Under the pieces are notes generated by a model that had not been told where the DNA came from, did no database searches, and worked only from the letters and a program-made list of their open reading frames with translations. A program made the position numbers and the translations under genes. DNA of 63,047 nucleotides, counting the filler, from Dugesia japonica (lineage: Eukaryota), in NCBI GenBank assembly GCA_001938525.1. It is 6 parts of 6 records of this genome, joined end to end, with 100 filler letters (N's around TTAATTAATTAA, not from the genome) between each part and the next. Parts side by side here need not be neighbours in the genome. Positions count along the whole stretch, not along the records: positions 53,486 to 63,047 come from MQRL01622505.1; 5 more parts are not named here. One strand, written 5' to 3'. Positions 6,094 to 63,047 of this stretch are shown piece after piece. Numbering within the stretch: the first letter of the stretch is position 1; every line of letters begins with the position of its first letter.

Positions 6094-6104
6094 TTTTTAA
6101 ATAT

Positions 6105-6535: not shown

Positions 6536-6539
6536 ATTT

Positions 6540-13896: not shown

Positions 13897-14410
13897 TAAA
13901 GTTTAGCTACACATTAATTCTAAAAACAAATAAAATCATAAATGAATTGTCGGTTTTGATTTCTTCTCACAATTAAAATTAATTATTTTTCACTAGTTAA
14001 TTTATTTTAAGATACAGAACTAATTTCAACAAAGGAACTAATTTGAACTTCGGAATTATTTCAAACAAAGGAATTTTTCAGTACTGGAATTTTTACGATA
14101 AATTATTATGAATGATTATTTTAATTTCAATTAAATTGTTTTCATTATTATTGTTGGGGTTCCGTCTAAGTTGGTTGTTTTGTTTTATGACTGTGGGATC
14201 AGTCACCCTGCAGAACTCCACTAAGAATAAAATTTAGCATTCCTGAGCTAAATTTTCAGAATAAAACATGTGACTCACAACCCCTAGTTGAAATAATTGT
14301 CCGCATTCCTTTACTTTGCGGTCACAATTCCCCTTATTTTTAACTCTTTAAGAGACAATACAATAAAAATTATATTGATAAAACATTTATTTATACATCA
14401 GAATTCCTAT

Positions 14411-14745
14411 CTATGAATATGCCGAAGGATCCTTACTACAGTTGAAGGCGGCTTCATAATCTTGGTCATTCCACTGGTTGATTGCCAGAGTGCCACGCCT
14501 GGCGGCCAGATCTGTAATATACTGGGCCAGGAACGCGACCTTGCGGAACAATCTGTTTGCAGTAGCGTTGACAATCAATAATTGTTTCTTATAGACGGTC
14601 TCGAATTGCTTAATAATTTTATTTTTTCGTTCGATATGGCGTAGTAGCATACTTTCTCGTTGATTATAGTAACTTCGCTACAATAAAAGGCCACGAAACA
14701 ATTGATGGCATCTGATGAGACTATGCGGTAACTGGTCTGCTAGCA
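14411..14745 (-). pseudogene. Cassette ORF1 (copy A), unknown basic/helical protein
   Basis: ttttag|TG-LADQLPHSLIRCH...LLRHIERKNKII...QYITDL...W.DQDYEAAFN, with one internal stop. Homologous to 41942-42261. Confidence 0.8.
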
Positions 14746-14864
14746 CTAAAACTAGGGATATTAGAAAATAGTTACATTCAGAGGTATGATTTCATCTTAA
14801 AGGAAGAATTAAATTGTCAATAAAAGTCAAATAACGATTTATTTACACCAGTAACTACAAGTTT

Positions 14865-15178
14865 AGTGTCGTGTATGTGTCGATTTATCTATAAAAAGAG
14901 GTTCAAGAGGTATTCGTGCTAACTGATTCTCCCGCTTTTATAACTGTAGAAAAATTGCCAGGTTGAATTTTACAGAGCGCACCTAAAAGTGTGAGAGTAG
15001 AGTTTCCTCCCGGAACTAGCGACATCACTTTTTATATTTTATTTTTGGCCTTTTCGGTGGCAATTTGGGCTTCCCAGTTTCGTTTGGATAGCCAATACAG
15101 CTTCCAAGACATCTCTTGGTCATCGCTGTTGTCATTTTGTCGTTTGCGTGCAGATGTAATAAGGATAATAATATTTGA
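14865..15178 (-). pseudogene. Cassette ORF2 (copy A)
   Basis: EMSWKLYWLSKRNWEAQIA matches MSWDLYRLAKRKWEADTA of 58412-58754. Confidence 0.7.
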
Positions 15179-15202
15179 CTAAACACATAACATAAATGTC
15201 AA

Positions 15203-15367
15203 CTAATTAATTCTCAGCACCAGTGGATGTTTATCAAAATCCTCTACAAATGAAGGGCTGGGAAAAGCTGGGGGTTCTATGTAGGTTACCATTTGCATGA
15301 CCCAGTACCAATAATTATAACGCTCGAGGCTGTCCTCACAGAGGCGATGAATTCTATATCGAAGCAT
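15203..15367 (-). CDS. Cassette ORF (54 aa), likely an ORF4 paralog occupying the ORF3 slot
   Basis: MLRYRIHRLCEDSLERYNYWYWVMQMVTYIEPPAFPSPSFVEDFDKHPLVLRIN, with acceptor ttattttag ending at 15383. Confidence 0.6.
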   Translation of the reverse strand: MLRYRIHRLCEDSLERYNYWYWVMQMVTYIEPPAFPSPSFVEDFDKHPLVLRIN

Positions 15368-15458
15368 TCTAATAAAGTTAATCTAAAATAAATAAACTAA
15401 GCGACACATGGTTTAACATAACATGTTTATTATTGAGACATTAAAACAAAAAACTTAC

Positions 15459-15644
15459 TTAGTCATGACTTGGCGGCAATTCAAAGGTAAACATCTTGGT
15501 GAGACATGCTTGATCTGTCTCGCCTGGATATTCTACCTCGTTGGGGTATAATATATGGTTCACCAGCTGGTATAACCGTGCTAGTTCTCGCTCGTGTCGG
15601 ATGATATGAAAGATTAAGTGAAATGTTTCTAAAAGAAAATTCAT
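15459..15644 (-). CDS. Cassette ORF4 (copy A)
   Basis: RLYQLVNHIL...VEYPGETDQACLTKMF matches the HPDETDLxCF motif of the other copies. Confidence 0.75.
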   Translation of the reverse strand: MNFLLETFHLIFHIIRHERELARLYQLVNHILYPNEVEYPGETDQACLTKMFTFELPPSHD

Positions 15645-16176
15645 TAAAATACGTTATTTTAATAAAATGGGGGGAATAGTGATTTTATTATCATAAACCC
15701 GAGTTTATAATATTAAGAGTAGTCACGCTACCGAGGGGAAAAATTGTAATCCTGAGGACAATAGCAATAATAACCAAATGCATCAACAGAACAAATAATG
15801 TTAGATAAGCTTATCAAATAGTCCAGTAGATAATAATGGATGCAAATTAAGGTTGATGTGGCATCTCCCGACCATGATATTAATAAGGCATGATTTTAGC
15901 ACTAAAAATGATTATAGCATCACAAAAATTATCAGTAGCAGAAACCATAATAATAACGTCACTAATAATAACATCGATGAGGTCGATAATTAATTAATAA
16001 TAATAGTCAAGATAATAATATTCCTACCAATAATAGCAATAATAATAAGAATAATAATAACAATATTACTAATAAATAACAGGCATGACAATAGCAANNN
16101 NNNNNNNNNNNNNNNNNNNNNNNNNNNNNNNNNNNNNNNNNNNNNNNNNNNNNNNNNNNNNNNNNNNNNNNNNNNN

Positions 16177-16239
<63 letters not shown>
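16177..16239. repeat. (AAT)n microsatellite
   Basis: Perfect AAT run next to an N gap. Confidence 0.95.
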
Positions 16240-16240
<1 letters not shown>

Positions 16241-18185
16241 GAAATAACATAATAACAATTATAATAATAATGGTAATCATAGTAATCCTAGAAAGAATAT
16301 TTTAATTGGTATAGATTAAAGTAAGAATGAATTTTAACCACTTGGATTAATTCCACTTTTAGTCATTAGTCAATCGATTAGGTCGATTTTAGTGATTTAA
16401 ATATGTTAATAGATAAAGAAAATTGCTACAATTCCCGCATTTACCATCATTTACTTGACTAACACTCGTTTTAAGAAATTATAGCGTAACAATAAATGTT
16501 CTAACCTCAAAAATAAATATTTGAATAGAATTTTTCAACTTAGGGAATTTGTTAACTAATGTGAGTTAATATTTATAGAGCGCCAATAGTTAACCTCTTT
16601 TAATTAATTAACCATTATTCTTAAAAATCTAAGTTTGCAGTCACACATCTGTTTATCTTTCATAGTCACTCGTTTACTAACTGCAACTTTCTGTTGCAAA
16701 CTGTATGTAATACTGTTCTTTGCCAATGAGTGAACGTGTGAGTTCATATTATACCACATGGTCATCTTTTCAATACCTGCCGTTAGTTTCACTTCCCCAA
16801 TATAGAGTTAAAAGGGAAAACAATAGTCGACATTAGTGGTATTATCCACAATTGCGGCAGGATTATTAGTAAAATTAACCAATTTGGTGTATTGATAATC
16901 GTAATCCATCGTGATGATCATATGAAAATAATAATGGTGATAATAGAAATTTTTTTAGTTTCAAGGGAGCATTATATTGTCTTTATACGAATATGATTGT
17001 TATAAAAGTCGTTTCTACATTCAGATATTAATAAAATAAAAATTACTTTGTAGAAATAAAATTTAACAAAATTATTATAAAATAAATACAAAAGTAAAAG
17101 TAAATTATCGTGTAAGATTAAGAATTAATAAAAAGTATCTGCTATATTTATAACTGTAGTTCTATACATTTTTCATTACTCGAGTCCTGTCTATGGTCTA
17201 CAACTTCGTGAGCTTAATGGTAGTGTTATAATATGATGCATTAATTACCTTGTTGCAACTATCATTATTATTGGTATTAAATTTGAAAGTAATGTACGAT
17301 GGATAATCGATAGACGACTCCCTTAGTTGGCCGCAAATCATTAATGATGTAGATCGATTAAACAATCAAGTCTTTAGCTCTTAATTCCTTATTATTATTC
17401 TTATCATTTTTATTATCGTGTATTAGTACTAATGTCGAATTCTAGTTATACTAATTATGTCCCTTTTATGCTAACAGTATTGTCATCATTATCCTTACTT
17501 CTATACCAATTAATTATACATAGTTATCACCATTAATTATTATCACCAGTACTTATCGTTAAACCTTATCGTCATTAATTCTCATCATTAACTATTCATT
17601 TTTTACTATCATCAATTATTATTTTGATAGTTGTCATCATTATTATTATTATTATTATCGTGATCATAATTATCATTGTTAAATGAATTTGAAGTACTCA
17701 TCGGATAATTAATATCAAAACTCGTTCCCATAAAAGATTTATTCACAAAACAAAACAATATCCATCACTATTTGTTTATTCAAACGAATTAAAATTCTAT
17801 GCTTTAATTGGAAATCATTTTTCAATAAATTAATATTTTAGATAAAAATTTTACTTCTTTATTAAATTTTCATTTAAAATATCTCCAAAATTTTAAATAA
17901 AATAATCGTTTGTTATTAAACTTTCATTTAAAATATTTCCGAAATTTTAAATAAAATTGTCCTTTCTAAACATCTACAATAAATTGTGTATACAAATATT
18001 TAAATTAATCCCTAAACTATTCCTAAATTTTGTACAAAAAATTTAATTTAATTTACTTTAATTTCTTATTTAATTTCTGTCTTACAACTTTTAAAAAAAA
18101 GATTTTAAGAAAATTATTTCCAACCAAAGCACAAAAATTTCAACTCACTTTTCAAAATCATCATTACTATTATTATTATTACTAT

Positions 18186-20540
18186 TGTTGGGATTCCATC
18201 TAAGCAGCTCAATTTTAATTAATAACTAGAGTAAAATGACCTAACAAAACCCCGCAAAGAATTTTATCTAGGATCCCAAATCTAGATTTTCGAAATAGAG
18301 CTAGTGACTCACAACCCGTAGTTTGAGTGCTTGCTCGTATTCTTTTGATTTGGGCCCTTCTAGCCATGAAACTCGGTTCTTTGCTTCCATCTTTATGATT
18401 ACCACTTTAGTAATATCAGTAATACCGTTGTCATAGTAGTAAATTAGTAATTTTAGTCCTATTTCTAACTATAGTTATAAATTATCCCAACAAATAAAAT
18501 CTACGCGATAAGAGTTAAAAGGTTTATTAAGATTCGTCTACAATACGAACTACATTAAGCAAAGCAACAACATTCAATCATACCAGTTCATCATACTGTT
18601 CATCATAACATGGCATAACAAGTATTTGTAAAGCACTACACGTTAATTATTTGAGTTATGGTTTTCTAGTTTTGGTTTATGGAATCTTCGTAATTTTTGC
18701 CATCATAATTTTCTTGTTTGACAATTTTCTGACGATGTAACGCCTTCGTTTTCTTCTGTTTTAACTTTCTCATAAAAATAATTACGATTTTCTAATAAAT
18801 CATTTTTATAATAAATAAATCATTTTTTATGATTTATTTTATTTTTTAATAAATTAATTATTTATTTTTTTTCTTAATTAATTTATTGATCAGATTCTTA
18901 TTTTCCATTCTAATCTAAATATTAAAATAATTTTAGCTTTTTTTCTCGCATCTAATTCATTTGATTTATTTCTCTGATGTTAATTATTAATTTAATTTAG
19001 CATATTTTATTCTTGTTAATAAATTACTTACAACTTCTTTGTATCCTCGTTCTGTTGTTTCCTTCATTCATTATCTGTTTTTCTGTTCTTATTTTCATTG
19101 TGCCTGGTTGATAATTTGAGTGTCTCTTTCTATTCTTGCTCTCTCCACCCCGTTTAATGATAGTTGTTCACCGTTGGTTTCACCTTGTATTCAGATAGTT
19201 CTTCAATTTCATCTTTGTCGTTATTATTATATTCTTGGGGTTACATCTTCTTTCCATTTCTGGGTCTACTCATATCTTTACTTTTAACTGTTCATTTTGA
19301 GGTGTTTTGTACCAATACTATTATTACAGTTCCTGTAACAAAATCAAAAGTTATTACGGATGATTATTTATTACTAATTAGTCACCCCTTGATGGTTTTT
19401 ACTATCAATAATCATTATTATAGATTATTATTAATCAATATCGTTATTAAAATTTACTAAAATTTTTAATTAATCATTTTAACTATTAGTTAATATTATT
19501 AACAAATTAACATTATCTGAATATTTAATCCAAAAACATAATTATTACTAATTTTTAAAATTACTATTAAAAAAAAGAAGTCATTTAATGAAAATTATAT
19601 TATTAATGGTTATCAAAATTTATCGATTACAGTATAATTTACAATTTAAGTAAACTAATCAAAACTAAAGTGAGCGGTATATCAATCTAAAACAAGCACC
19701 GAGTGTGATTAAAATCACCTTGGCAACCCAAATTAATTAATCTACCTTACCCTGATTACACACTAGCGTAGTCTAGGTTTCTCTTCGATTCAACGGCACA
19801 CTTACACGGTATATATGCTATCTATTACACGCACCTTCACATAATTTTTTACTTTATTATATTCCTCGAGCCCTCTATATCACATCCATTTTGGATCGAA
19901 AACAGTTTCAATAATTCTTTAATAAATCACCTTTTGCTCTTTAGTATCAATTTAAAAGTGAATTTATTTAATTGAAGTTTTTGCAAAGTTACAGCGGTAT
20001 GTATATAGGTTTTCTAATACTCCATCATTCTTCTTATTGGTTAATTGGTATCATTGGATTTTTCTAAAATTCTCATTTGCTGAATTATTCAAGACTTGTT
20101 ATATTGATCAAGACATCCAATCAATGTTTTGGAATTCGAAAACCCCTGTAACTTCCCTCTAAGTTGAGTCATGATTTCCTAGCTTGGCGTTTTGAAATCT
20201 ATGATGCTTTCGTGACCAAAGTTTTCTTATTCACTGCTTTTTCCTTATTGGGAAGTCTTCGTTTTCTTCTATTTTTGTTTTTCTTGTAAAATTAATTAAT
20301 TAGTTAAAATAAATCATTTTAAGTTGCATGATTTATTTAATATAACAAATTAATTGTTTATTTTTATTTTCATCTCAAATAATTTATTAATTAGAGTGCC
20401 ATTTTTTATTTCCAAGCTAAAATTTAATTTAATTTACACGTTTCTTTTCATAAAAAAACAATTTCATTTATTTCTTCTATCTTTAATAATTAATTTCATT
20501 CAATTTTCCATATTCTTCTTAATAAATTATTTGTTCTAAT
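18186..20540 (-). mobile_element. Giant LTR-like element, copy E (internally deleted or rearranged)
   Basis: Starts TGTTGGGATTCCATCTAAGC with the hairpin region. 19640-20080 is homologous to 48530-49020 (ORF5 family). Confidence 0.6.
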
Positions 20541-27834: not shown

Positions 27835-28253
27835 TCAAGTCCCTTTGTTTGGTGCATTATTCTCGGATTCGCCCCCGTCAGCGATGTTTCTCAGATCCCA
27901 TAAAGTGTTATTTTTGTCACTGTATAATCTCGTGCTGGGTGGTACGTGCTCGACTGAGATAGAGATCACTGATGGACCTGAACGCCATTCACTAGTAGTC
28001 TCAATTTCCCCAGTATTTATATGCGGGAACGCGGTGATGGAATGATATACTTCTCGGGCCCGATCCGGGCTATTCCAAGTATAAAAAACCTGACGTTCGG
28101 CTTCGGCCCATTCCTGCTCGTTCTCAGCGTCCTCCTTTTCTAAATTCAAGTAATCTACTAGGACGCCCGCATTCCGATTGTAGGCATTCGTGTACTTCCT
28201 AAATATTGTGCGACCAGTGCGTTGGTCCAACAAAACTTCCTATTTGTGATTCA
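27835..28253 (-). pseudogene. Cassette ORF3 (copy B)
   Basis: ttctag|TG-NHK*EVLLDQRTGRTIFRKY...EDAENEQEWAEAERQVFY, homologous to 42972-43391. Confidence 0.85.
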
Positions 28254-28378
28254 CTAGAAAAATAAAATGGGTTTTTGTTCATAAAAAGAATTTAGCTAAT
28301 ATATTAATTAATTCTATAAGAAACTCGAACATAGGCTCAATAAGTTTATTATTTTATAAAACGTTAACGATACTACTT

Positions 28379-28564
28379 TCAGATTTCTGTGTCGATATCC
28401 ACCTGAAAATTCGGAGGAAACCTCTCAACGAAATAGCTAAGATCCGTTTCGTCAGGATGTTCGACTCTTCCGCGAGAAAAAATGCAGGCCAGCAGTTGTT
28501 TTCAACGATCAACTCGACGCTGCTTTCAGATGATCTGGAGGGAATTAATGAGCTCTGTTGTCAT
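28379..28564 (-). pseudogene. Cassette ORF4 (copy B)
   Basis: tttag|TA-ATG, then KQLLACIFSRGRVEHPDETDLSYFVERFP. Two internal stops. Confidence 0.8.
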
Positions 28565-29792
28565 TACTAAACGTATGAAAATTGATTATTAATAAGTAGT
28601 AGAATCACCCTATCACCTAGTGGGTAAAGATGTAAGTAAAAGTAGTTCTTATCAGCTGGAATCAATGTAAAAGGTTGGGTGAACTACATGCGCTGGCATA
28701 ATTTTATGTGATAGAAAATATAATTGTAGCTTTCGCTTATTAACTGAAGCAAACCCTCGTTATCAGTAGGGGATAAAAACCTTCTCGGTTATTCATTTAA
28801 AGCTGTATTTGGAACTGCTAACTACAACTATGCGCTAAACTTTATTGAATTATAAAATTATGATGAATAAAAAAATTTTTTTAATGACATTTAATAACAA
28901 AACAACTCAACTGAAATCTAATTACTCATATACCCTTTACTACCTGTGACAAAATCAGTAATAAGATAAAATCAAGTCTACATATATGGTGATTACGAAA
29001 ATACTCTTTTCTTGATGGTATAACGCTGTTGTTCTCTCAACCCACATTATCGTGTGAGTCACAGGATGAAATTATCGTTGATGTTGGCAGAGTGATTATT
29101 TTAAATCCAAATTTTCATGACTTCCAAATATCATCCGCATGAAGGCTGAATACCTAAGTCAAGTATGGAACTTCACTTTGTAAAAAAATCATATTAGATT
29201 GGTGCCTCCCTAAATTCTGTAGGTGTTATTTTACAGAATAGTGGCCATTGCTAGATACATAAAAGTGGTTGTTTTTTCTTCTTTTTTTGGTCGATAATTT
29301 ATTGATGAGACAAATAAAGATATTAGCTGATACTAGATAAGGTTTAATTCAATAGCATAATGACTGTGTCAGAGATTTCTGTTGATACATACATGTCTTG
29401 TGTGTATGTCACGTTATTTACCAATGAGGTCATTTATTGATTTATCATACCTTTGTGAAATGAGTGCAGTAGTCCTAATGGTTGTATTAGTTTATGTGGC
29501 AATACGTGTGGTGACTACTGGTTAAACAACGACTCTACCATACTAGATAATTTCATTCATTAATCCATAATCACATCAATGATGGCTAAAAATAGTAACA
29601 AGAATGAAATGGAATCTTTTAGTGACTAATGATTTCCGGTTTAAACCGAATGTTAGCAGTACTTAAACAGATCATAAATAAATATTAAATTAATGATTAA
29701 TGTCACACTTATTTTATTAATAATGTAGTAACTAGACTTCATTTGACAAGTATTTATTAAATAAGCAAAATTCATGATTACAAAACGAATTT

Positions 29793-30495
29793 TATAACAA
29801 AGACTGAATAATTACGATTTTCTGCAACGGGAACGAGTAAATAGGTCTATTTTCTTTATGACAAAATTCTGGATGATGGTTCACTAATATTTTTCTCGGG
29901 TTCACTTGACTATTTTGATCTGTAATAAGTTAACGTTAACAATCCACTGAATAAGAGACCAATGTTACTATGCCGAAATTATTCTTTGATCTATTCTACT
30001 AATTTGCCCAACAAAGTTTTTTCAAATAATTCACAGCGTTGATAGTAATAGAAAAGTTTTCTCTTCGATAGATCAATAAATTTCAGAGATGCTACAATAA
30101 TTCTCAGTCGCTTACAATTTATGAAAAATGTGTGCTGTTTTCTTCTAATTTTCATGGGGCTTATATAGTTTACCAGATACAACCCAACATTATTGCAATT
30201 GGGCTTCTTTTTTTGATTCAAAATTCTGGTCTTTCATTGGTTCCGGTGCTAATTTTTTTAGATTTTTCATAGATTTTTGGCTTCTATTGGTGACTATTTT
30301 TGGAGTGCCATGTGATGATCTGGTCTTAGTTTTATTTTCCTTTTCTGGCCCCTTGTTGGCCCATTTGTCTAACCCTTGTATGGACCTTCCTGATGGTGCT
30401 ACGATTTTCGGGTTGACAAATTCTATTGCCCCAGATCTTTCGCTTTCTAGATTTTTTTTACGAGTCACTGTAAGTATGTCGAGCGGAGATAATCA
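29793..30495 (-). pseudogene. Cassette ORF5 (copy B), basic ~230-aa protein
   Basis: tttttag|TG start, KENKTKTRSSHGTPKIVTN, and end PVAENRNYSVLL*. Homologous to 61115-61828 and 40260-40800. Confidence 0.65.
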
Positions 30496-30899
30496 CTAAA
30501 AACTGATTTTCGTTCAATTTCATTTTATTTTTTCGTCCAAATTAATTAATTTTTCTGTGAAAAATAATTATTTTCCAATAAAAATTTTTTTTGTCTTTTA
30601 TTATTAATTTGATAATTTTCTTTAATTACTGGTATGGTTGCTGGTTAATTTTTGTTCACTCAAGATCTCCATGTCCATCTTCTTTTTATTAGTTTTTGTT
30701 ATATTTTAACAATATTAGTTATTTAAAATTGCTTTTCTTTTCGACTTCTTTTACTGATTGATTATTATATTCTTTCAACTGCGTTTTCTTCCCAACCACC
30801 GTTTTCAATGTTTTATGATTTGGGCCCCTGGCCTTGATTTCTTCTTAACTGGGTGCTTCACCCCAACACTATCAAACCATTGAATAATCATACATTATT

Positions 30900-31499: not shown

Positions 31500-31998
31500 T
31501 TTAAATTTTCAAGTTTTCTTGAGAAAGAAAAAACAATCAACTCTCAGTATAATATAAGCCTATTGGACCAATTGGATGACAAAATTCGTGGAAAATAACC
31601 AGGTTTGCAGAAGAAAAAAATCATTTTTCTGCTAGAAAATTCACAGGCGTACAAAAGCACTTTGACCATGACAAAATTCAATGAATTAAAGTACGACTGG
31701 CTTGATCATCCACCTTATTTACCTAATTTAGCTCCATCAGACTTCTTTCTTTGCTCAAACCAGAAAATATTCTTATCTGGAAAGCGTTTTCGTAACAATC
31801 AAGAAGTAATTGATGCTGTACACAGCATTTTGGCAAGTCTTGATGAAAGTCATTAGAACCAAGGTATCCATTTGCTAGAAAAACGTTGGACTAAATGTGT
31901 TCAGCTAAAAGGAGTTTTTGTAGAAAATTAATGTAATTTTTGAACAATAAATGTTTTTTTATTCTTTTCATTTTCAAAACGTTTCAAAAAGCCTTCGT
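31500..31998 (+). pseudogene. Mariner transposase C-terminal fragment
   Basis: KKKIIFLLEN...LDHPPYLPNLAPSDFFL...GKRF, followed by LEKRWTKCV. Confidence 0.9.
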
Positions 31999-33884: not shown

Positions 33885-34364
33885 AGTAGATAGATAGTAG
33901 CAGTAAAGAACAGCACACATTCAATACGCCCCCTCCCATCTATGTAATCGGATTATTACATAACTGTTTTTAAATTTTTCTAATGTATTTAGTTAGGAAA
34001 GTATTTTAGGCTTTTTACACAGCAATATTTTTTAAGCTGTTTAGTTGGGAATTTATTCGGCGAGGTCAAATAAGGTCTATTTTTATTGGTTTTAAGTGGT
34101 TTTTGTCCAAAAATTTTTCAGTGAGGATGAATAAGGTCTATTTATTGGATGGTTCAGGTGAATTTGGCCAATTATTTCCTCGAGATTGGTTGGTTTAGGT
34201 AACTTTTGGGCGTTTTGGTCAAATTTTTCCTGATGATTTTTGGGTGATTTAGGTGAAATTGGTCCAATTTTTCTTGATGAGGTCGAATGAGGTTGGATTT
34301 TGATTGGTTCTGATGAATTTGGTCGAAAAATTTCTCGGTGAGGTTGAATAAGGTTGATTTTTCA
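33885..34364 (+). mobile_element. Polinton-type terminus followed by minisatellite
   Basis: AGTAGATAGATAGTAGCA...CCCCCTCCC, then ~40-bp repeats running to the gap. Confidence 0.55.
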
Positions 34365-35886: not shown

Positions 35887-36329
35887 TTTTACTTGTTACA
35901 ATGCAATCAAGAGAACAACATGGGGATATGGTCCGATTTGAAATGAGAGTTAATCATGTGTATAGGATTGATACTTTAAAATTTTCTGAAACAAATCCAG
36001 ACTTCCTTGCTTCGATGAATGGAATAATTTCAAATCAATTTAGCCATTCAACATTTCCTATGTGGATAAAAGAAGCAGATCTTAAGTGTAAATGTCCATC
36101 ATTATTACTCGGAATGACATATTTAGTTGTTCTAAAATTACATACAATTAAATACTTGGAAAGATCTGAATTATTATTGGATCAAAAGAGTGTAGCTTTA
36201 CCCTGGCAAAAAACTTGGGAGCGTCGAATGAAAAAATTTGCAAGTAAAGAACAACAAGGTTTATGTGTAAAATGGAAATTAAAACGTAGTTATCGTCATC
36301 AATATAGACAAAGTAATAGATATGTATAA
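35887..36329 (+). CDS. Last coding exon of a netrin gene (NTR/C345C domain)
   Basis: Acceptor ttttacatttag, then WIKEADLKCKCPSL..G.TYLVV...LLLDQKSVALPWQKTWERRMKKF...G.C, which fits the netrin C-terminal consensus. Intact frame. Confidence 0.88.
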
Positions 36330-41611: not shown

Positions 41612-41765
41612 ACCTAACAGGCATGTATGTACTTACTCACATAGTTTAGATATCAACCTCACGGCAAGATGCATGGTCAATCATGTATGCCTATTTTTCT
41701 ACACACTAGGAAGATAAGTATCCTAGGAAACGAATGATGATAATTTGATTTTCAGGCCTCCAGTA
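41612..41765. repeat. Inverted repeat arm paired with 44540-44693
   Basis: About 154 bp, with 2 mismatches seen against the reverse complement of 44540-44693. Inner ends read CCTCCAG|TA. Confidence 0.92.
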
Positions 41766-41941: not shown

Positions 41942-42261
41942 CTATATATATAGAAAACTAAATGCGGCTTCGTCGTCAAGATCGTGCCAACGGATCCACG
42001 CCTCATTCCCCAAACGCTGGTATAAATCCGTTATGTAGTGTTGTAAAAAATCAATTTTATGTTGCAGAATCTGCTTTGTTTGTTCGGCTAAGTCGCCCTG
42101 CTTCTTAACTAAAAGGTCGAGTATTTTAATCAGTCTGTTCCGTTGAGTTAAGTGTCTTAGGAGTGCCCTTTCATTTTGGCGTCTGATATGCCTTTCTAGT
42201 AATAATTTTTGAGTCATTAGATGACAACGACGTAAGCTATTTGGGAGTTGAATTCGTAGCA
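41942..42261 (-). CDS. Cassette ORF1 (copy C), intact
   Basis: ttttag|TG-LRIQLPNSLRRCH...ALLRHL...FLQHYITDL...W.DLDDEAAFSF, with AATAAA at 41934-41939. Confidence 0.85.
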
Positions 42262-42412
42262 CTAAAATGAAGAACAATAATTAAAATGGAGAATCTTTTG
42301 ATCCCGGTTAGTAATTAATTAGAAAAGAAAAACTTTGTCTCAACTAAAACGAAAACTAAATCAATATAATTTAAAATTGTGTTTATTTACAAAGACATCA
42401 AAAGATACAGAG

Positions 42413-42772
42413 TCATGGACGGGAGGTTTGCGTGCCTTTGTCGATCATTACCGGCTCAAGCGACATTTTCTGTTTAAGCTCTAAAACTTCGTTAACCAGT
42501 TTATTTTCACGGTCATGGGGGGACCGGATGATCTCGGTGAAGGATTCTATTTGTGCTTTTATATATCCTCTCTTGAGCATGAGAAGCTTCTACTTTTTTA
42601 CGGAAAGCTACACATTTCGCCTTATATCGCCTGACTTTAGTATTTGAAACAGCCACGTCAGCCTCCCATCGACGTTTTGCAAGGCGATACAGATCCCATG
42701 TTATTTCGAGATCTTCGCTAGATTCACGCACTTTTTTAGTGGGAGCAGCGGAACAATTTAAGGATGAATGCA
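42413..42772 (-). pseudogene. Cassette ORF2 (copy C), one frameshift
   Basis: ttctag|TG-HSSLN...TWDLYRLAKRRWEAD...KCVAFRKKVEASH / DRENKL...LEPVMIDKGT. Confidence 0.85.
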
Positions 42773-42971
42773 CTAGAAAATATGATGTAATTAATGGCAC
42801 GAAATTTAAAGACTAAATATTAATGCCGTTATTCACAGATTATTTTTTTATGGTGGCAAAATGTAAATATAAAGTAATTCGGAAAGATTTTTAATTCAAT
42901 CAAAATGCACAGAGAAAGTTTTTATTAAAAATATGTCATTGAAAAGACGCACAACTTCAACACAATATAGC

Positions 42972-43391
42972 TTAATTATCAGTAGTGGCGTTGGCATTCT
43001 CCGAATTTTCACTTTCTCCGCCATTACGCACAACCCAAAGATTGTTTTGCAAAAATGTCGTTAAACTTGAAAATGGAGGAAAACGATCGGTAGAGATGCT
43101 GATCATAGAATGGCTTTCTACCAAATCACTTCTAGTACTAATTTCCTCATTATGAATTGGAGGAAAAGCCGCGATAGAATGGTACACAGCTCGCTTCAAA
43201 TCAGGGCCGTTCATTTCATAAAACGTACGTCGCTCGGCTGCGTACCATTCTCTTTCCTCCTCGGCTTCCTTTGCCGGTAAGTTAGAATAATTAGTAGATA
43301 CCCTCGCATCTTGGTTATCGGGGTTTTTATACCTTTTAAAGACCGTTCGGTCGGTTCTCTGATCCATCAAGACTTCCCAATTATATTCCAT
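42972..43391 (-). CDS. Cassette ORF3 (copy C), intact 139 aa
   Basis: cctag|AA-ATG, then MEYNWEVLMDQRTDRTVFKRY...EAEEEREWYAAERRTFYE..GPD. Three homologs in the window. Confidence 0.85.
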   Translation of the reverse strand: MEYNWEVLMDQRTDRTVFKRYKNPDNQDARVSTNYSNLPAKEAEEEREWYAAERRTFYEMNGPDLKRAVYHSIAAFPPIHNEEISTRSDLVESHSMISISTDRFPPFSSLTTFLQNNLWVVRNGGESENSENANATTDN

Positions 43392-43507
43392 TTCTAGGAA
43401 ATTATAGTAAACGTTTATCTAGATTAGCGAGATCATAATAATAATATATTCCATTTCTAGGAAATTATAGTAAACGTTTATCTAGATTAGCGAGATCATA
43501 ATAATAA
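43382..43507. repeat. 63-bp tandem duplication covering the ORF3 acceptor and ATG
   Basis: tatattccatttctaggaaattatag...gatcataataataa occurs twice. Confidence 0.95.
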
Positions 43508-43582
43508 TAATTTAGTAAATATGTAAAATCCAGATAATTATAGAAAACACATTTATTAATAAATATGAAACAAAGGAACATG

Positions 43583-43774
43583 TCAGCTTTCTTGATCACG
43601 ATCTACTTGGTGAGATTTACACGGAGAAAAAAGTTCTGCAAAACAGAGGAGATCCAACTCATCCGGGTGTAAAATTAGAGACGGAGACAAGATGTGCCCT
43701 ATTAATTGTTTCTTCCGTGATCGTTCCCGTTCTTGTAGGATTAATATATGGGTTTGTATTAAAATGTCGGTCAT
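43583..43774 (-). CDS. Cassette ORF4 (copy C)
   Basis: MTDILIQ...KKQLIGHIL...HPDELDLLCFAELF. Start chosen by alignment with the other copies. Confidence 0.8.
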   Translation of the reverse strand: MTDILIQTHILILQERERSRKKQLIGHILSPSLILHPDELDLLCFAELFSPCKSHQVDRDQES

Positions 43775-44539
43775 GAGCAGGTTGTTTCCTAATTGATATA
43801 ATATTAAAATGAATTCTAAGAAGACTACATGGTTTGCAATCAGAACACCGGCTGCTGTAATCCCGCTGGTTTCCCCTTGCAATGCCAGCAAAAATACTTA
43901 GCTTAGGGCACCTGGTAATTGAATTTATCAGTCCAAATTATTGTATAAAATAATATCGTTAATTAGTGATTAGCCTATTAAAGATGCTAATTCCGAAGTT
44001 AACTACATTTACAAGGATAATAAGTTCAGTAATTATCAGGGTAGAACATTGGAATTGCACCTGCTTTTGGTCACTACTAAACAATAATAATATTAGTATG
44101 ATTAATAGAAAAAATAATATTGATATAGTATTCACAAATTAGGATATTGCTCATCAGATTAATAACGGCGGTGTTTATAAAGACATTACTAATTTGGTCA
44201 TTCCTAGGACTAAACTTACCATAATGACATCGCGTTAAGAACTACATATAATAGTGATTACAAGATTTATATCGACAAGGTTAGCAATATTAATACGGAT
44301 ATTCACAATAACAATAATAACAAGGATATTATTAATAATAATACTAGTAATGATAGTACCCGTAATAATAATAATAATAATTTTATTAACAATAATACCC
44401 ATAATAATAATTTTAAGAATAATAATAATTATTTATACGGATTGAACACAGAGGAACATAATAACAAATACATACATCGTCACAATAATAAAGGTAAGGT
44501 AAAACCTGTCACCATTCGCAATCGTAATCCATATATATA

Positions 44540-44693
44540 TACTGGAGGCCTGAAAATCAAATTATCATCATTCGTTTCCTAGGATACTTATCTTCCTAGT
44601 GTGTATAAAAATAGGCATGCATGATTGACCATGCATCTTGCCGTGAGGTTGATATCTAAACTATGTGAGTAAGTACATACATGCCTGTTAGGT
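44540..44693. repeat. Inverted repeat arm paired with 41612-41765
   Basis: See 41612-41765. It runs into the contig end. Confidence 0.92.
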
Positions 44694-47419: not shown

Positions 47420-49020
47420 TGTTGGGATTCCATCTAAGCAGTTCAATTTCTCAGCTTGTATCTGGGGTAACATGGCCTAGTAAAACCCCATAAAGAATTT
47501 AATCTGGTGTCCCGTTTCTAGATTTTCAGAATGGAGCCGTTAACTCGTAACTCATAGTTTGAGTGCATGTTCGCATTTCTTTTGTTCGGGTTCACACTCG
47601 CTCTGGTTTGGCAGACAACTTAGATATCAGTGTGAAGGTTATTGTGGGAAGTATATACTGGCATCTTGTTTCAAATATTATCATTGTTGGTATTATATTT
47701 CAAAATTAATNTAANATGGGNAATCGATAGATAATCTNCTAAGTTTGTCATGAATTCTTAATAATGCGAGTCAGGTAACTAATCGAGCCTTTAGTTCATA
47801 GTCCATTTTTATCCTTATTATTATTTTAATTAGCTTTTTTACTAACGTGGATTAGCACTAAAGTGACCATCCAGTTAGCGTTATTATCATGATTATCCTT
47901 ACTCTATTATATTTCATTACTTACTATCGCTACCCCTTACCATTATATCATATCGTCGTTAATCTGAATCATTAACTATTCATTGATTGCTTTTATTTGT
48001 AATTGTCATCACCAGACTATTATTATTCTAATTATTACGAATATTGTGTTTATCATTATGGTTATAGTCATTATTAAAGTTTGTCAAAAGTTTATACGGG
48101 TGAATAATTATTCTAAAGAAGCCTGACTTTCATTATTTTATTATTATTATTATCCCCTTGATTGACATCAATAGTCATTATTATTATTAGTATTATTATT
48201 ATTATTGTTGTCGTCTTTAACAAATCAGAAGTCACTAATTGAGGTTTATTTAATACTTTTCACTTTACTAGGAAAATGTATCTTTATTTTGCCATCAAAA
48301 ATCATTATTATAAATCATTAGGAACTGAAGTAATGAAACATTAGTTAAATATTACTATAATTGTTTATTACTAACAATTTTTTATCAATCGTTTTTATTA
48401 TTACTCAACATTATTAACATATTGCCATTATTCAAATTTTCCTAATCATTAAATTCATTACTGTTAAGCAGAAAAGAATTAATTATCGAAAATTATATTA
48501 ACATTTATCAATTACAGTACAAATTTGCTAATTTACATAATCTAAATAAAACTAACGTGAACTGCAGATCGGTCCGGAGCAAGAACGCTGCGCAATTGAA
48601 AATCACAGTGACAATCCGATTAATATTTATCTAAATCCGATTGAACACCATTACTGAAATCTATCTGTCCTTTTCAAACACTCGCGCAATAATAATTCAC
48701 TCTTATTCATTTGCACATCTACATGGTGTATCATAGATTTCATAATTATACACACTTTCATTGATTTTTTAAATTTCATTATTCTTGGGGCCTTTCCTAT
48801 CTCATTCACAGATTTCTGAGTCGAAACTGTTGCAATGGTTTTATTTTTATAAATCACCTTTTGCTCCTTAGTATGAATGTAAAATTGAATTATTTAATTC
48901 TATTTTTTGATTGATTTTTTCTGAGAATTTCAGTGGTATTTATATCAGTTTTCTGGTACACTCCCATTCTTTTTATTGGTTAATGGGTATCATTCGATTT
49001 TTCTATCGTTCCTATTTGCA
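47420..49020 (-). mobile_element. Giant LTR-like element, copy F (ORF1-4 deleted)
   Basis: TGTTGGGATTCCATCTAAGC plus hairpins, with segments homologous to 17270-17720 and 19640-20080. Confidence 0.65.
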
Positions 49021-55495: not shown

Positions 55496-57889
55496 ATATT
55501 CATATATTCGAAAATTTTAATTTATTATTAAATCAAATTTCTTTTCAGTCAAAATTCAAAATTTAAAAGCAAATATTCGTTTTTAAAACTTTTTATCTAT
55601 AATTTAAATCATTTTTGAAATAAAAGATTTTTTAAAAAAATTATCACCAATCACACAAAAATTTCAACTTGCTTTTCAAAACATACTCACAGTATTATAA
55701 TATTATATGATGTCAGAACATTATAGGAAATCCGAATTGCAAAATTTAATAGTTATTCAAGTCATTGTTTTATATTAAATAAAAATATTACTTTAGAAAC
55801 CTTGTGCCGATTCAAATCGCAAATAAAATATTATGTTGACATCATCACATTAAATTCTGGTTTTTAGATCGCATTATATCCTATTAAATGTTATTAAAAA
55901 TTTCTTTTCGATAGGAAGTGAAAGCTTTATGTTTGTGTCATACTTTCATTATTCAAAGTATTCATTCAATACTATGATTCTTAATTACTCGTATAAGATT
56001 TTCATAAAATAATAAGAGTATATGCTATTTTAACTACAATCATTAAATTTATTAATAGTTATACAGCGATAGATATTTTTGAACGAATCATTTAATGAAA
56101 AATTAAATAATCAAATCAACCAATTCCATTAGAAAAAACCTTTAATAGATTTAAAAGGAATTCGTCTTAAAATACAGTATGAAATTAAAACATTAATAAT
56201 AAGAAGAGGTCATTTTGCGATCATAACCAGCAATATGAGTAAATTATTCAACTAAAATCATTTGAACTATCTGAGTATTCTAAAAATAAGCAATAATTGC
56301 TACTAATAAGCTATTGAATAAGTATTACTTGCTTGTCCCTTTGTTGGTCTAACTGATGAAAATATCAATGTCTTAATTTAATGTATTAAAAATATCTAGT
56401 TTAAGATTCTTATATTCAACGATGAAACCAATGTTTCCGTGAAAAAACAAATGTTTCCATTATAAAAGCCACATTTTCATGATAAAACCAGTATTTTCAC
56501 GATAAAAACCCTGTTTTCCATAAAACTTATATTTGCATAATAAAACCAGTATTTTCATGATAAACTCGATGTTTTAAATGATGAAACTATAACTTTAGCT
56601 ATTGAAACTAAAATTTTCAATGATGAGATCAATATTTCTAATTATAAGATCAGTATTTTGTATGTTGAACAATGTTTCAACAATATTCTTTAACAATGTA
56701 TTTCAATGTTGTGTATTTAAAATAAAAAAGAAACCTATAAAACAAAAGTGCAAGCAGGGTTGCCAATGAGCAAGCAAAGAAGTTGAAGTATAATATGATT
56801 ATTAAAATATACTGAAATATTTTTATTATTTTAAATATAATGCACTTTATACTTGGTCTCACTCAGTCTTATTGTCTTCCTTTATTAATATATGTCACTT
56901 TTTAAAGATTATTGATGTGAGGTCTATGAAAATATGAAGTAAAAATATGCATTAAGACACAATAGAAAATAGAGAAAATATAGCTAAATGTGGATAAATA
57001 GGAGTAAATCAGGCAAATACGAGTAAATGACTAAATTATGGCAAAATATGTTAAATCGTGTGACAAATAGTGTATAAATTAAACATACTAAATGACAATG
57101 TATAGAATAAATGCAGTATAATTAGTGACTAGATTTACTCTATTAAATATAGTCCAAACTCATATTTTCTAATTGTAAAATTTGAATTTTTTTATGATAA
57201 GTCCATTATTTTCTTGTAGTGAAACTTGTGTTTTCATTAACGAAACGGAATAATAATGTATAAATTATAGTCAAAAGATTGATTTTATTGATTGATAATT
57301 TGGTATTTAATGGAACAAGAAACCAATAAAAACCAAGGTGCACACAGAGTTGCCATAGAGCAAGCAAGGAACCAAGAATCAATCAAGGAGTCAAGAAGCA
57401 AGCAAAGATGAATGCAAATAGTGAAGGATTTAATTGAAGGGAATACCTATATTTAACAAGATAGAACTATTATGTTCATGTTGAAACCTATATTGATATC
57501 AAGTTGTAATGGACTTAATCCTTTGTCCAATAAAATAAACCATGAGTCATTATTATCATTTAAAACCTTTTATAAAAATATAAAGAAAATGTGGGTAAAT
57601 CCTGTAAAATATGAGAAAATCAGGCAAATTAGACCAACGTAGTGTTGGGGTCCCACCTGAGACGTGACAGTGACTGGGGAAGAACAGTCCTCAGGGGAAC
57701 CCTTTCAAGAATTTAATCCTACCGTCCCTGTGGTAGGTTTTCAGTTTACTGCGGTTGACCTTACCCTTGATGGAAGGTGCACGCCAATAAACCTTTAGTT
57801 TGGGTTCTATATACTTTCCATATTACTATTTAAGAGAATTAAACAATTTCTTACAATTCGAATTAAAATATTTATTATCAAAAGAACAT

Positions 57890-58262
57890 TTAAATCAGAT
57901 CTAAGGCGCCCAGATCTAACCATTGATCGGGGGTGGTGACCACAAAGTTAAATGCCGCAATATCGTCATTCTCATCCCACGGTGTGACGTTGGGATTGCC
58001 GATCTGATTGGACAGGCCAGCAATATATTGCTTCAAGAAATCTATCTTGCGTTGTAAAAGGAGTTTGTTTTAGTTTTAGTTTGAGTGGCGAAGTCAGCTT
58101 GCTTTTTCACTATTGTATTCAACCTCTTAATGAGCTTATCCCTCTGGCTTAAATGTCGAAGTAGAGCCTGGTTGGTTTTGCGTCTTACATGCCGGTCTAC
58201 TAACAAACGACGCATGATGCGGTGAAAACGGCGTAAACTGGTAGGAAATTGGATGCGAGGCA
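57890..58262 (-). pseudogene. Cassette ORF1 (copy D), one frameshift
   Basis: tttttag|TG-PRIQFPTSLRRFH...ALLRHL / KQYIAGL...PWDENDDIAAFNF. Confidence 0.85.
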
Positions 58263-58411
58263 CTAAAAATGAAAATTAACATCAATTCGAGAAAATTTCT
58301 TAATAGAAAAGTTTATACAAATACTGGCTACTATTAGAAGATTCAAAGAACAAAACAAGTCAAAATAGCAAATTTTATTAGCAAGGTGACCAATCAATGG
58401 CTTTGGGGTGT

Positions 58412-58754
58412 TCATGTGCCTTTATCCACCATCAAAGGTTCTAATGGCATAGTCACCTTTAGTTTGAGAATATCATTTATCAGTTTATTTTCGCGGTCTT
58501 GATAGGACCGGATCATTTTAGTCAAGGACTCTACCTGACATTTCCATACCCGCTCCTGTGTATGGGATGCCTCAACCTCCTTGCGAAACGCCACACACTT
58601 CTTCCTATAACGACTCACTTTACTACTGGCGTTGGCAGTGTCAGCTTCCCACTTACGCTTGGCTAATCGATACAAGTCCCATGACATCTCGCGATCTCAC
58701 TATCCTCGCGTATCTTTTTCGTAGGAGCCAAACTGCGATTCAAGGAGGAATGCA
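58412..58754 (-). pseudogene. Cassette ORF2 (copy D), 5' frameshift
   Basis: tttag|TG-HSSLN / MSWDLYRLAKRKWEAD...KCVAFRKEVEASH...LEPLMVDKGT. Confidence 0.85.
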
Positions 58755-58934
58755 CTAAATTTACATAATCAGATATTGAATTCCATACCTTAAAGGTGAA
58801 ACAAATATTTTTAATTAATTTAAAGAGCTCGTAGCAAATAGCCTATTATTACAGTAAACAAATTAAAGGAAAATGACAACGATGTATTCTCAGAACACAA
58901 AAACATATAACCCAACAAAGGCTGGATGACCAAT

Positions 58935-59338
58935 CAAGCTGAAGGTTCGGCATTCTCAACCGAACCACCACTTGCCTGGTTACGGAGCTACCATAAGTTA
59001 TTTCCAAGATCGATCGCGAAACTGGTACTTCGAGATAGATGACCAAGTGGAACTGGAAGCAAGGAAGGTCCGTCTTGCNAATGAGTACTAACATGATTAA
59101 TTAATGAGTCAACCATCGTGACTTGATGAAGGACTTCACGGCTACGATCAGGGCCTGCCCATTCATAGTAAGCCCGGCGCTCTGCGGCCGCCCATTCTCT
59201 CTCATTTTCTGCTTCTTCTGGTGCTAAATTAGAATAATCCACCATGATGCCGGCATTGCGGTCATGTGGATTACGATAACGTTTGAAAACAGTTCGTCTA
59301 GTATACCGATCCCACAATACTTCCCATTTAAAATCCAT
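58935..59338 (-). CDS. Cassette ORF3 (copy D)
   Basis: MDFKWEVLWDRYTRRTVFKRYRNP...EAENEREWAAAERRAYYEWAGPD...NNLW. The 3' end is uncertain. Confidence 0.8.
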
Positions 59339-59528
59339 TTTTAAGTTCTATAATAAATAGTGGATTAAGCAAGATCACAAAACAACAACAAAAGGAAATA
59401 GTGAAAAACACTTAATTAACATTCAATTTTTTATTCAAGATGAGTAAAGCACGAATTAACAAACGCAGTTAATTATTACGGCCATTTGATTAAATTCGCG
59501 TGACTGGGGACTTGATTTGGAGAGTGGG

Positions 59529-59711
59529 CTACTCTTCATCTATGTCCGCCTTATGTTCAAGGGGAAACATCTCAACGAAACACTGTAGGTCTGTTTCGTC
59601 GGGGTGTTCTATGGCTCCATGGGTCAAGTAGTGAGCAATTAACTGCTTGAGTCTAGCGGCTTGACGACGACGTTTAATCCACTTCAACATGCGGCGCAAC
59701 TTTGCTGGCAT
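59529..59711 (-). CDS. Cassette ORF4 (copy D), intact 60 aa
   Basis: gttttag|CCG-ATG, then RLKQLIAHYL...IEHPDETDLQCFVEMFP. Confidence 0.85.
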   Translation of the reverse strand: MPAKLRRMLKWIKRRRQAARLKQLIAHYLTHGAIEHPDETDLQCFVEMFPLEHKADIDEE

Positions 59712-61114
59712 CGGCTAAAACAGAAATTATTACGATATTTACACTAATATCTTATACTTGCTAAAACAAGGGAAGACATTATTATCTCAAACTGTAGCAG
59801 GGTTGATGTACTAAGATTTTACGCATTGGGCATATGAACGGCGTAGATATCGCGCAGTGTGACGAGTTTACTTCCTAATTGATGTGTAAGATATTGCCGT
59901 GAGTGTCTTGGACTAAAATTATACTTGGTCAAGTGTCAAACAACCTTTTACGGTTGGCATTAACCATGCCCAATGGTCTAATACTCAGTGAAATCCCCAT
60001 TATCTGTGTTATTAAAATAATTTTGGAATTCATTTTGCCGATCGTGGGGAGGGTTGTAACTATTTTACTGATAACGACAAACAATAAATTTAGTACCTTC
60101 ACGGGTGATAATACTGGTGATCGATGCTAAGTCCAGTAATAAGCATAAAATAGATATCCCAATAATAATGATAGTATTATCGCTATTCATAAGAATAAGC
60201 ATGATAAGAATTCTATAATCGAATTAATACTAGTGATAATAAAAAAAAATTTAATAATATTAGTGAGACGACGGATAAATTATAATACGGAGATAAGTGA
60301 TATCCACCTTACGAAATATGATCAATTTTATTTTCTCTAAAATAAAGCAAGTTATCGTGATCATTGCTGATGTCATCGTGTACTTTTCCATCACTAATTA
60401 CTTGTATGTGTGTCTGGACCTATTGTGAATTCGATCACGTTCCACACACATTATCAATGCATCACCAATAAGATGAGTTTTCCTTCCCTTTTCTGTGAGT
60501 AATCGATGCTCAGTAATTCGGTTAGTTTAGATAAGTTGTGCAGTGATATTGGTAATTTATTTCATATTTTTAGAAATTGGTTATTTGTCTTTAAACTTAG
60601 AGTTACAAATGTGATTACTGGTATCAATTACGGATAAATCTCAATCAGATCTGTCAACTTCATCCGCATCTCCTAATTGGCCTTAATCAATTAAGCTAGT
60701 AATTCTATGGAAATTTATTCGTTCAAGTGATATAATCTCCTTTTTTCGTGATGGATCTCTTTGTGGATTTTTATTCATAATACTATGCTCTGAAAAATAT
60801 GTTACTGTAATGTCGATATTTATGTGTCTTGATGAGATTAGGGTTTGATTTATCAGAAGGTATTAATTATTCTTAACAATCTGGATCGAATGGCAGGTTC
60901 TAGTAAGTAATGTCTATTGGTATAAGTGCATTTATGCTAAAAATAAATATTGTGCCATTCATCGTCTTTTTATTAATATTTCTCTTTTTATTATAAAATT
61001 TGAAATAATAATATCACATAATCTTACATAGCTAATTTAAAATATTAAATTATAATATGATAAATTTTATTAACACATATCGATTATTTCATACCCAATA
61101 ATAAAAATTAACGA

Positions 61115-61828
61115 TTACTTGAGAATGAATGGTAGGATTTCTGCAACGGTGGAACAACGGCTAATAGTCGAAAGCTTCTCTTTTTATATATTTTCACTGA
61201 GCTCGCCTTCTGAATTCGTGAAATTCATCTGCTTTAATTTGGAGGTTTAACTTCTGCAACTATTGTAAATGTGATGATATCAACTAGTGATTACCGTTTT
61301 CTTCTTCGCAAGGTTTATTAACTTGAGATAATTTTCGTTGTCGTAACTTATTCAACCGAGAGTTCGTTAAGCATAATTCTTGAGTTGAGATTTTTTCGTG
61401 TTAGTCGCGCAACTTGGTAAAATAAAAAATTTTTATTCGTTTTTTGACTTGAAAACTGGAGGTCCTTATATGTGGTTTTCTGGACACCCCAACTAAGTTC
61501 AGATTTGCCAGTATTTTTAGACCAGCTCCTTTTCAATTTTATTGGTNNNNNNNNNNNNNNNNNNNNNNNNNNNNNNNNNNNNNNNNNNNNNNNNNNTGGT
61601 GCCATGATTGGCAACTATTTTTAGAGCAGCACCTGACATCGATGTCTTTGTTTTATTTTTATTTTCTGGATGTTCATTGGCTGGTTTTTGGATTCCTTAC
61701 TGTACCCCTCTGGAAGGTGGTACGTTTTTCTTTTTTAAGATTCTAGTTGCACCGGCTTATTTTCTGTTCAATTTTTCTTGTTTGAACTTTTTCTGACGTC
61801 CTGGGCTGGAGTTATCGGTAAAAAACAT
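61115..61828 (-). pseudogene. Cassette ORF5 (copy D)
   Basis: attag|ATAAAAAT-ATG, KTKTSMSGAALKIVANH, and end TVAEILPFILK*. Confidence 0.65.
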
Positions 61829-63047
61829 ATTTTTATCTAATTTTGTTTATTTTTTGTTTGAAATTAATTAATTTTTCTACATTAATTAATNNNNNNNNNN
61901 NNNNNNNNNNNNNNNNATTATTTCTTTTATTTTATAATTTCTTTTTAATTTCTAATCGTAAACAACTTCCGTTTTTCATATCCTTTTTTGATTTTGTTAC
62001 GTTTTCTTTTTATGGCTGCTTCTGATACTTTATTTCCTTTTTTGCTGACTATTAGATTCGACGTTGCCTTATTTCATACTTTAGTGGGTGTTTTACCCCA
62101 ACAGTAGTGTAAATGAAGGCAAAGCTAGGTTAATAGGGTTAAAACAGGGGAAAACAATGTGAATAGGGTAAATTGTAGTAAATTACGGTAATCAGGGTAA
62201 AATAGGATAAAAACAGGTTTAAAATATAAAAGTTTATGAAGAATATGGTAAAATAAGATAAATTGGGCAAATTATTGAAAATTCTGGCAAAATTAGACAA
62301 AAACAAAGTTAAAAGAGAGAAATTAAAGAAGAAATATTTGAATTTTAAACCAATAAATGACTATAAAATATTATGAAAATCAAGTGACTCCTCCGAGGAA
62401 TAATAATATCTNTTTTTGATTCTCATTTANAAATAACCATTAAATAATAATTACATATTAATATAACAAAGTAATGACTAATATTTATTCAGATCTTATC
62501 ATTTACCCTTGAAATTCGATAAAATCTTCAATTATTTGTTTAAGGATTACAAACTTAAATTTTTCGCATAACCAAATTCTTTTCTATATTATTGTTATCA
62601 ACTTTTATTACACATTTAATATCTATTCCAAAACAATCATAGACTTTGCTCCAATATCTTTCTTGATTCCCATTTTGTGATAGTTTTTTTTAGATTTTTA
62701 AATTTACTTTCCAAAATGGTTTTTATAATTTCTAAAAAAATTAATTAATTAGTTAATTCAAATAAACCATACATTTCTTTTCAGTATATAGAAATTGATC
62801 GTCTTCAGAATCAACATACCAATTTTCATCATCTGATTTCTCTTCAAAATCGAAATATTCTCTTTCATCTTCGCTATTATAAGGCATTGATTCATTTTCC
62901 ATTAAATTTCTAATTTGTTCGCTCATTATTCTTATTTATCCTAATAATAATTCGATTTAGTTTTTAATTTCTGAAATCTAATATTATAAGTTTAATTGTT
63001 TAAATACAGTGTTTGCATGAAATGAAAAACTTTCAAATTTATTTAAA

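Follow-up and report, generated by a model that had tools for sequence, protein, structure and literature searches.

A likely solo long terminal repeat of Dugesia japonica carries a row of conserved orphan reading frames laid out as cassettes bounded by acceptor-like sites and poly(A) signals

Analysis of a 63,047-nt window of Dugesia japonica DNA, which comprises six AT-rich contig parts joined by N spacers, revealed a 4461-bp element with 9-bp inverted ends (57643..62103, termed copy A; the minus strand is its probable sense) that is likely to be a solo long terminal repeat (LTR) and that carries four minus-strand orphan open reading frames (ORFs) with homologs in three diverged copies on other contigs. 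What is new here is the acceptor/poly(A) cassette architecture of these ORFs, together with a pattern of start codons split at the acceptor. The data support copy A as a discrete integrase-type insertion, and we regard it as quite probable that it is LTR-derived in one orientation or the other; judged from its sequence, an origin from the LTR of a giant gypsy element would be plausible. The full model, to which we incline with less assurance, would have copy A as the solo LTR of a large Ty3/gypsy-type element in which a shared leader is spliced to four last-exon cassettes.

Five further partial copies were found in the window besides copy A. Copies B (14152..17651), C (27835..30868) and D (41942..43788), all on the minus strand, carry the homologous ORFs at 14.4-15.6, 27.8-28.6 and 41.9-43.8 kb, respectively, on three other contigs, and copies E (18186..20080) and F (47420..49019) have a left end and no array. 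Copies A and D have the cassettes in the order 4-3-2-1, copy B has 4-x-2-1 and copy C has 4-3 only. A preliminary description of this locus had reported the same order recurring at 14.2, 27.8 and 41.9 kb, which holds in full at 41.9 kb, whereas ORF3 is replaced at 14.2 kb and only ORFs 4 and 3 are present at 27.8 kb. The peptide motifs it had named as conserved (WxLYxLxKRxWEA in ORF2, EAExExEWxxAER in ORF3 and HPDETDLxCF in ORF4) are present, but its fifth ORF was not confirmed, as a six-frame search of the window gave the two candidates (59796-59910 and 59932-60126) no match other than themselves. A CxxxxPC-like likeness of ORF5 between A and D, seen by eye, was unsupported by alignment or by phmmer. 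Copy B retains its left end and cassettes 1, 2 and 4, and its right end was not found. Copy C lacks its left part, ends at the right in CCCCAACA and has early stops in both of its cassettes (3 and 4). In copy D, cassettes 1, 3 and 4 are open, cassette 2 is frameshifted and the TGTTGGG end is absent.

Within copy A, ORF4 alone is open over its conserved length. Cassette 1 (57890..58262, minus strand like the others) starts at an AG/TG acceptor at 58262, is frameshifted near 58060 and has its stop at 57890-57892, with AATAAA 13 nt past it; its product is basic and is approximately 105 aa long in the intact ORF of copy D. Cassette 2 (58412..58754) likewise has an AG/TG acceptor (58754), a frameshift (near 58696), a stop at 58412-58414 and AATAAA 32 nt beyond, and encodes a basic product with weak coiled-coil-type Pfam matches, none of them above the cut-off. 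Cassette 3 (58934..59347; acceptor 59347) has its own ATG at 59338 and an early stop at 58988-58990, with homology continuing to about 58940; AATAAA is absent within 110 nt in copy A and present in C and D, and the product is acidic. Cassette 4 (59529..59714; acceptor 59714) also has its own ATG and encodes 60 aa with the HPDETDL motif, with AATAAA 93 nt past the stop. Further upstream, a probable coding block that is broken in copy A (61607..61783, minus strand) has a homolog in copy C, where a frame of 100 aa is open (30190-30492; phmmer E=1.5e-6); 44/59 second codon positions are identical, compared to 30/59 for the first and third positions (Fisher p=0.003).

Copy B carries in ORF3's place an open 59-codon cassette (15203-15382, minus strand) that is unrelated to the others, has an acceptor and its own ATG and is without a homolog in the window, which suggests that cassettes are exchangeable. 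Copy D contains a 63-bp perfect tandem duplication (43382-43507) that includes the acceptor of cassette 3. Paralogy was unsupported between ORF1 and ORF2 (probability 0.1%) and between ORF4 and the extra cassette of B (probability 0.3%), and hydrophobic frames upstream of cassette 4 proved to be a degenerate ATT microsatellite.

Selection was assessed from 17 in-frame blocks pooled into five copy pairs of 142-383 codons each. Synonymous differences were saturated (proportion, pS, 0.74-0.85) and the non-synonymous proportion (pN) was 0.29-0.42, with pN/pS of 0.36-0.51 and upper bootstrap bounds of ≤0.65; the codons were paired through protein alignments, leaving out stop and N codons, which biases pN downwards and counts against the result. 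Reading the opposite strand of the same pairs gave pN/pS of 0.85-1.12, and the codon-position pattern of the gapless blocks agrees with the pN/pS result. Values near 1 were not seen in the coding reading, in line with the purifying selection on a multi-gene module that had been proposed. Because synonymous sites are saturated and non-synonymous sites are not, the copies are old, separate lineages whose proteins were kept by selection while the elements were active.

The cassette architecture was examined in 14 cassettes, namely 13 homologous ones and the extra one in B. An acceptor-like TAG lies ahead of all 14, with at least 8 pyrimidines in 12 positions in 11 of them, against a background of 13% per 30 nt. 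AATAAA follows the stop within 110 nt in 12/14 cassettes, where 2.1 would be expected from shuffles and none of 200,000 simulations reached the count; on the other strand it was found for 5/14. The acceptor is in phase 1 in 10 of the 14. Where a cassette has no early in-frame ATG, the acceptor AG is usually followed directly by TG (6/8 cassettes), compared to 0/6 of those with such an ATG (Fisher p=0.0097) and a background of 16/281 sites. Cassettes 3 and 4 mostly have an ATG of their own, and cassettes 1 and 2 are mostly in phase 1 and lack an early ATG. In ORF3 of copy C, a split xTG occupies the exact position of the methionine in A, D and P0001, the one database homolog of this ORF. Together, the TAG, AATAAA and AG/TG pattern points to alternative last exons served by one leader that would complete the split start codon, and the simplest reading is that the cassettes are alternative last exons spliced from a shared leader ending in A. 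Splicing that completes a start codon has a precedent in the env gene of springer-clade errantiviruses, where the exon is spliced from an AU dinucleotide (PMC12992720).

The ends of copy A are well defined. Its termini, TGTTGGGGT at the start and ACCCCAACA at the end, form the 9-bp inverted repeat and the TG...CA ends that had been reported, and the GTAG target-site duplication, also reported, is present on either side (57639..57642 and 62104..62107). Both flanks belong to one degenerate tandem repeat of 10 bp, whose periodic identity from one side of the insertion to the other was best with a 4-bp duplication (47/100), followed by 5 bp (42), with 17-38 for all other lengths from 0 to 10. The termini match the TGTNR pattern of gypsy LTRs (PMC2836005), and GTAG agrees with the 4-6-bp duplication of a Ty3/gypsy solo LTR. 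TA occupies flank positions 2-3 in 5/5 independent flanks, compared to a TA frequency of 0.11 window-wide and 0.10-0.23 locally, as would be expected of one integrase with a palindromic preference; the flanks of B, E and F are ATT-rich, which raises the chance rate of TA. Among the copies in the window only A has both ends. It contains two N gaps, of 50 and 26 nt, as well as a lone N. Six ORFs or frames of the unit were scanned and had zero Pfam matches above the cut-off, consistent with the earlier statement that it holds no gag, pol or transposase.

A terminal block of about 170 bp (57643..57815), which would be U5-like if the minus strand is sense, is shared in a MAFFT alignment with copies B, E and F (starts at 14152, 18186 and 47420). 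The left ends of B, E and F match one another by blastn at 63-74% over 185-197 nt, and the block of A gave zero blastn matches to them at E≤1e-3, the similarity being visible only in the multiple alignment. A 19-letter terminal pattern has four matches, which are not independent evidence, as it was built from these four left ends. Copy F is also similar to copy B internally (47665-48076 and 17249-17651). At the other end, a repeat family (26956-27131, 30868-31340 and 34100-34364) has one end abutting the right terminus of copy C, so that the four bases at that point are perhaps not a simple target duplication.

A solo LTR derived from a large gypsy-type element is favoured because the ends, the duplication and the size fit, and the minus strand is probably its sense strand. 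Under this model, a leader exon would arise from a minus-strand promoter located at about 61.2-61.5 kb, within the A-rich end, and the spliceosome would join this exon to one of the four acceptors. Cleavage of the RNA at the AATAAA of the chosen cassette would give each protein an mRNA of its own. Cassettes 3 and 4 would mostly supply their own ATG, and cassettes 1 and 2, which start with TG one base out of phase, would have their AUG completed by a leader ending in A. Because the use of a poly(A) site generally goes together with splicing of the last exon, genomic RNA left unspliced could extend across the whole cassette row. Copy A itself would be a decayed relic of LTR-LTR recombination. 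As to a U3-R-U5 structure, the unit shows TATA-like and AATAAA patterns only. A candidate TATA box, identified by pattern only (61461..61470, minus strand), aligns with TATATAAG at 30167 in copy C, and a second TATA-like site at 61190 is unshared. On the minus strand, A makes up 46% of the initial 0.9 kb of copy A.

Several observations weigh against this model. The acceptors were chosen by eye, the copies share ancestry and are not independent, and 4/14 cassettes have phase 0 acceptors. A conserved donor site for the leader was not found across five copies, and one donor candidate shared by C and E ends in C rather than A, which disfavours a split start. Several sense-strand poly(A) signals within an LTR would be awkward for a genomic RNA. 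None of the six termini in the window adjoins gag-pol, a primer-binding site (0/6) or a polypurine tract (0/6); the lack of the latter two is expected for solo copies but lends the LTR reading no positive support, and no paired direct copies surround gag-pol in the six contigs. The sole nearby integrase relic (25.6-26.4 kb) is below the Pfam cut-off and ends in a different terminus. Copies E and F have an LTR-type left end without cassettes, and copy D has the array without an LTR-type end. The relic itself is a degraded gypsy-type integrase (25600-26480, plus strand) with weak Integrase_H2C2 and rve matches, followed by a purine tract and an unlike TG start.

The strongest of the alternatives, which we consider possible but rather unlikely, is that copy A is not an LTR but a complete non-autonomous element, a short-ended passenger carrying the same spliced array and mobilized by an integrase or transposase in trans. 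Only self-contained or truncated copies were seen, with 0/6 termini adjoining an interior, although paired multi-kb LTRs are not visible in this window and six short contigs could not show them. The array-less variants E and F would suit such an element, as would copy D, whose 2.8-kb array is enclosed by 154-bp arms that are 99% complementary (41612-41765 and 44540-44693). The left arm reaches 41592, ending in TGTGA after TTAA, and the right arm meets the contig end; these arms may represent either a Ginger-like DNA transposon with a captured array, two inverted insertions or an assembly artefact. Ginger DNA transposons share the TGTNR termini and 4-bp duplications, but their terminal inverted repeats are 40-270 bp long (PMC2836005), compared to the 9 bp of copy A, and membership of the Ginger group was rejected on this length. 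The scanned ORFs of the unit revealed no transposase, although non-autonomous copies would also lack one.

A less likely possibility is that an LTR or LTR-like unit carries the cassettes as alternative C-terminal exons of a shared coding first exon, in phase 1 and with a common N-terminal peptide. The ten phase 1 acceptors, including 3/6 of those whose cassettes have their own ATG, and the probable coding block upstream at 61607-61783 would fit this arrangement, and coding upstream exons are described for env of ZAM/Beagle and idefix (PMC12992720). However, it leaves unexplained why TG follows AG specifically in the cassettes without an ATG and why ORF3 of A and D, like P0001, retains a starting methionine, and the four phase 0 acceptors do not conform to it.

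It seems improbable that the array is an operon which spliced-leader (SL) trans-splicing resolves, in the manner of flatworm operons whose cistrons are closely spaced, although a poly(A) signal followed by a short spacer and an acceptor is the layout of an operon too. If, as in planarian SLs, the leader ends in ATG, it implies phase 0, and the frame of cassettes 1 and 2 would be lost even though their conserved residues begin directly at the acceptor; cassettes 3 and 4 are compatible with it. SL trans-splicing and operons are known in flatworms including Schmidtea, and the SLs of parasitic flatworms likewise end in ATG (PMC12582326). Lastly, an array antisense to the genomic RNA (plus strand as sense), like the antisense genes expressed from retroviral 3' LTRs, is very doubtful. 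It would be compatible with the splicing model, genomic RNA would no longer be at odds with the internal poly(A) signals, and the N gap at 61891-61916 of A covers the site of a plus-strand AATAAA in copy C. Two weak indicators speak against it, namely that A is abundant on the minus strand at that end (44-46% in copies A and C) and that the TATA-like site these copies share faces the array.

Our searches agreed with the earlier impression that the proteins are unrecognizable, as no family, solved structure or Atlas match was obtained and a lone orphan homolog of ORF3 was found. No cassette product was above the Pfam cut-off, and the best matches to PDB sequences had E values of 0.088-0.86. The ESM Atlas gave no usable match for ORF3 and scores of 0.79-0.81 for ORF1, within the shuffled range. 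A homologous-protein search restricted to near lengths returned 0 matches to ORF3, ORF2 and the ORF1 alignment among 4, 2 and 181 candidates, respectively. A profile search of 1.84 billion proteins, made for ORF3 only, returned exactly one at E≤0.001 (P0001, 94 aa, E=1.7e-17), an orphan singleton encoded on a 512-bp ENA contig. In viral contigs, 0/91 pattern matches were confirmed by the ORF3 profile and 0/28 by the ORF4 profile, and in metagenomes 0/576 by ORF3 and 0/93 by ORF2; the terminal DNA pattern had two matches in viral contigs, both unrelated, and no locus related to the element was found in either set of scans. Rfam gave 0 matches at E≤0.5, and no tRNA genes were detected in the window. 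The AlphaFold2 model of ORF3 was unusable (mean predicted local distance difference test 42.7). A transmembrane helix was not apparent in seven products (maximum 19-residue hydropathy ≤1.07), which sets them apart from MDG1-type small ORF 2 (sORF2) and FAST fusogens, and they are likely to be soluble accessory or regulatory factors acting in trans. The C-terminal DKGTQT of ORF2 in copy D fits the LC8 motif [D/S]KX[T/V/I]Q[T/V] (PMC3078936). This possible LC8/dynein-light-chain-type motif is a lead only, as it was noticed post hoc and is complete in 1/3 copies, B having a one-residue variant and A stopping inside it.

LTRs are normally regulatory DNA, and to our knowledge the genes that overlap them are single ORFs such as nef and sag. 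The planarian giant gypsy elements Burro/GYPSM1, compared here by description only, are similar as LTR elements of very large size that bear accessory ORFs and reside in the AT-rich genome of a flatworm, whereas their accessory content lies in an interior polyprotein or an upstream ORF, and LTR genes are unmentioned in the available text (PMC6431247). Planarian giant elements with accessory ORFs also appear in PMC11410931 and PMC8532177, and the first Smed errantivirus rows examined in the supplement of PMC13524379 come without LTR coordinates. Among the closest systems in function are the internal promoters of Tor (PMC4402516), the MDG1-group sORFs and the ORFs of foamy-like fish endogenous retroviruses. 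The Drosophila MDG1 group has small selected accessory ORFs (sORF1 and sORF2) and an internal poly(A) site that yields a short transcript, but these are two unspliced ORFs upstream of gag, and sORF2 is a membrane protein (PMC11952523), compared to at least four acceptor-led cassettes inside a TG..CA unit here. In springer-clade env, splicing also completes the start codon, for a single gene outside the LTR (PMC12992720), whereas the A/UG split suggested for the copy A family would serve several genes. The foamy-like fish elements have several selected orphan 3' accessory ORFs and candidate internal promoters, and a figure legend marks ORF boundaries in the LTR; they differ in being vertebrate Retroviridae with larger ORFs mainly outside the LTR, and no per-gene poly(A) cassettes are described in the passages available (PMC5210030). 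The available portions of PMC13524379, PMC13238120, PMC8629364 and PMC12801592 hold nothing on such an arrangement. A literature search by title and abstract opening found no description of it either; Grohme 2018 and Repbase, which could already annotate the ORFs, lay outside its coverage.

Other features were observed elsewhere in the window. The first contig contains fragments (800-10360) that we take to be Polinton-like, among them an A32-like ATPase with a Pfam E of 0.005, a TBP-like ORF (9182-9634, E=3e-14) and what may be capsid and polymerase pieces, and its start holds an inverted duplication of 220 bp (1-220 and 3241-3460, 100% identical). Decayed mariner-like transposase fragments were recognized by eye at 13000-13800 and 31600-31930, the second without a Pfam match. 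A basic 106-aa ORF at 23615-23965 (plus strand), with a GGGF motif and a hydrophobic tail at its end, had no Pfam match above the cut-off, and a host exon at 35871-36329 (plus strand) encodes a netrin/NTR C345C domain (Pfam E=1.4e-11), a sign of an animal genome.

In summary, we tentatively propose that in one lineage of invertebrate retroelements the LTR has become a modular transcription unit, complete in itself and holding several genes, in which one leader is joined to a row of exchangeable last exons with a poly(A) site each and splicing makes the start codons of some cassettes. If this is true, regulation in the style of complex viruses would extend to a retroelement of invertebrates, through a row of at least four selected orphan genes that each have splice and poly(A) signals within one TG..CA unit, and the array could also be passed to other mobile elements, as copy D may illustrate. 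Solo LTRs scattered through the genome could then keep expressing orphan regulators without gag-pol, and would be protein-coding units that are missed by gene and repeat annotation alike.

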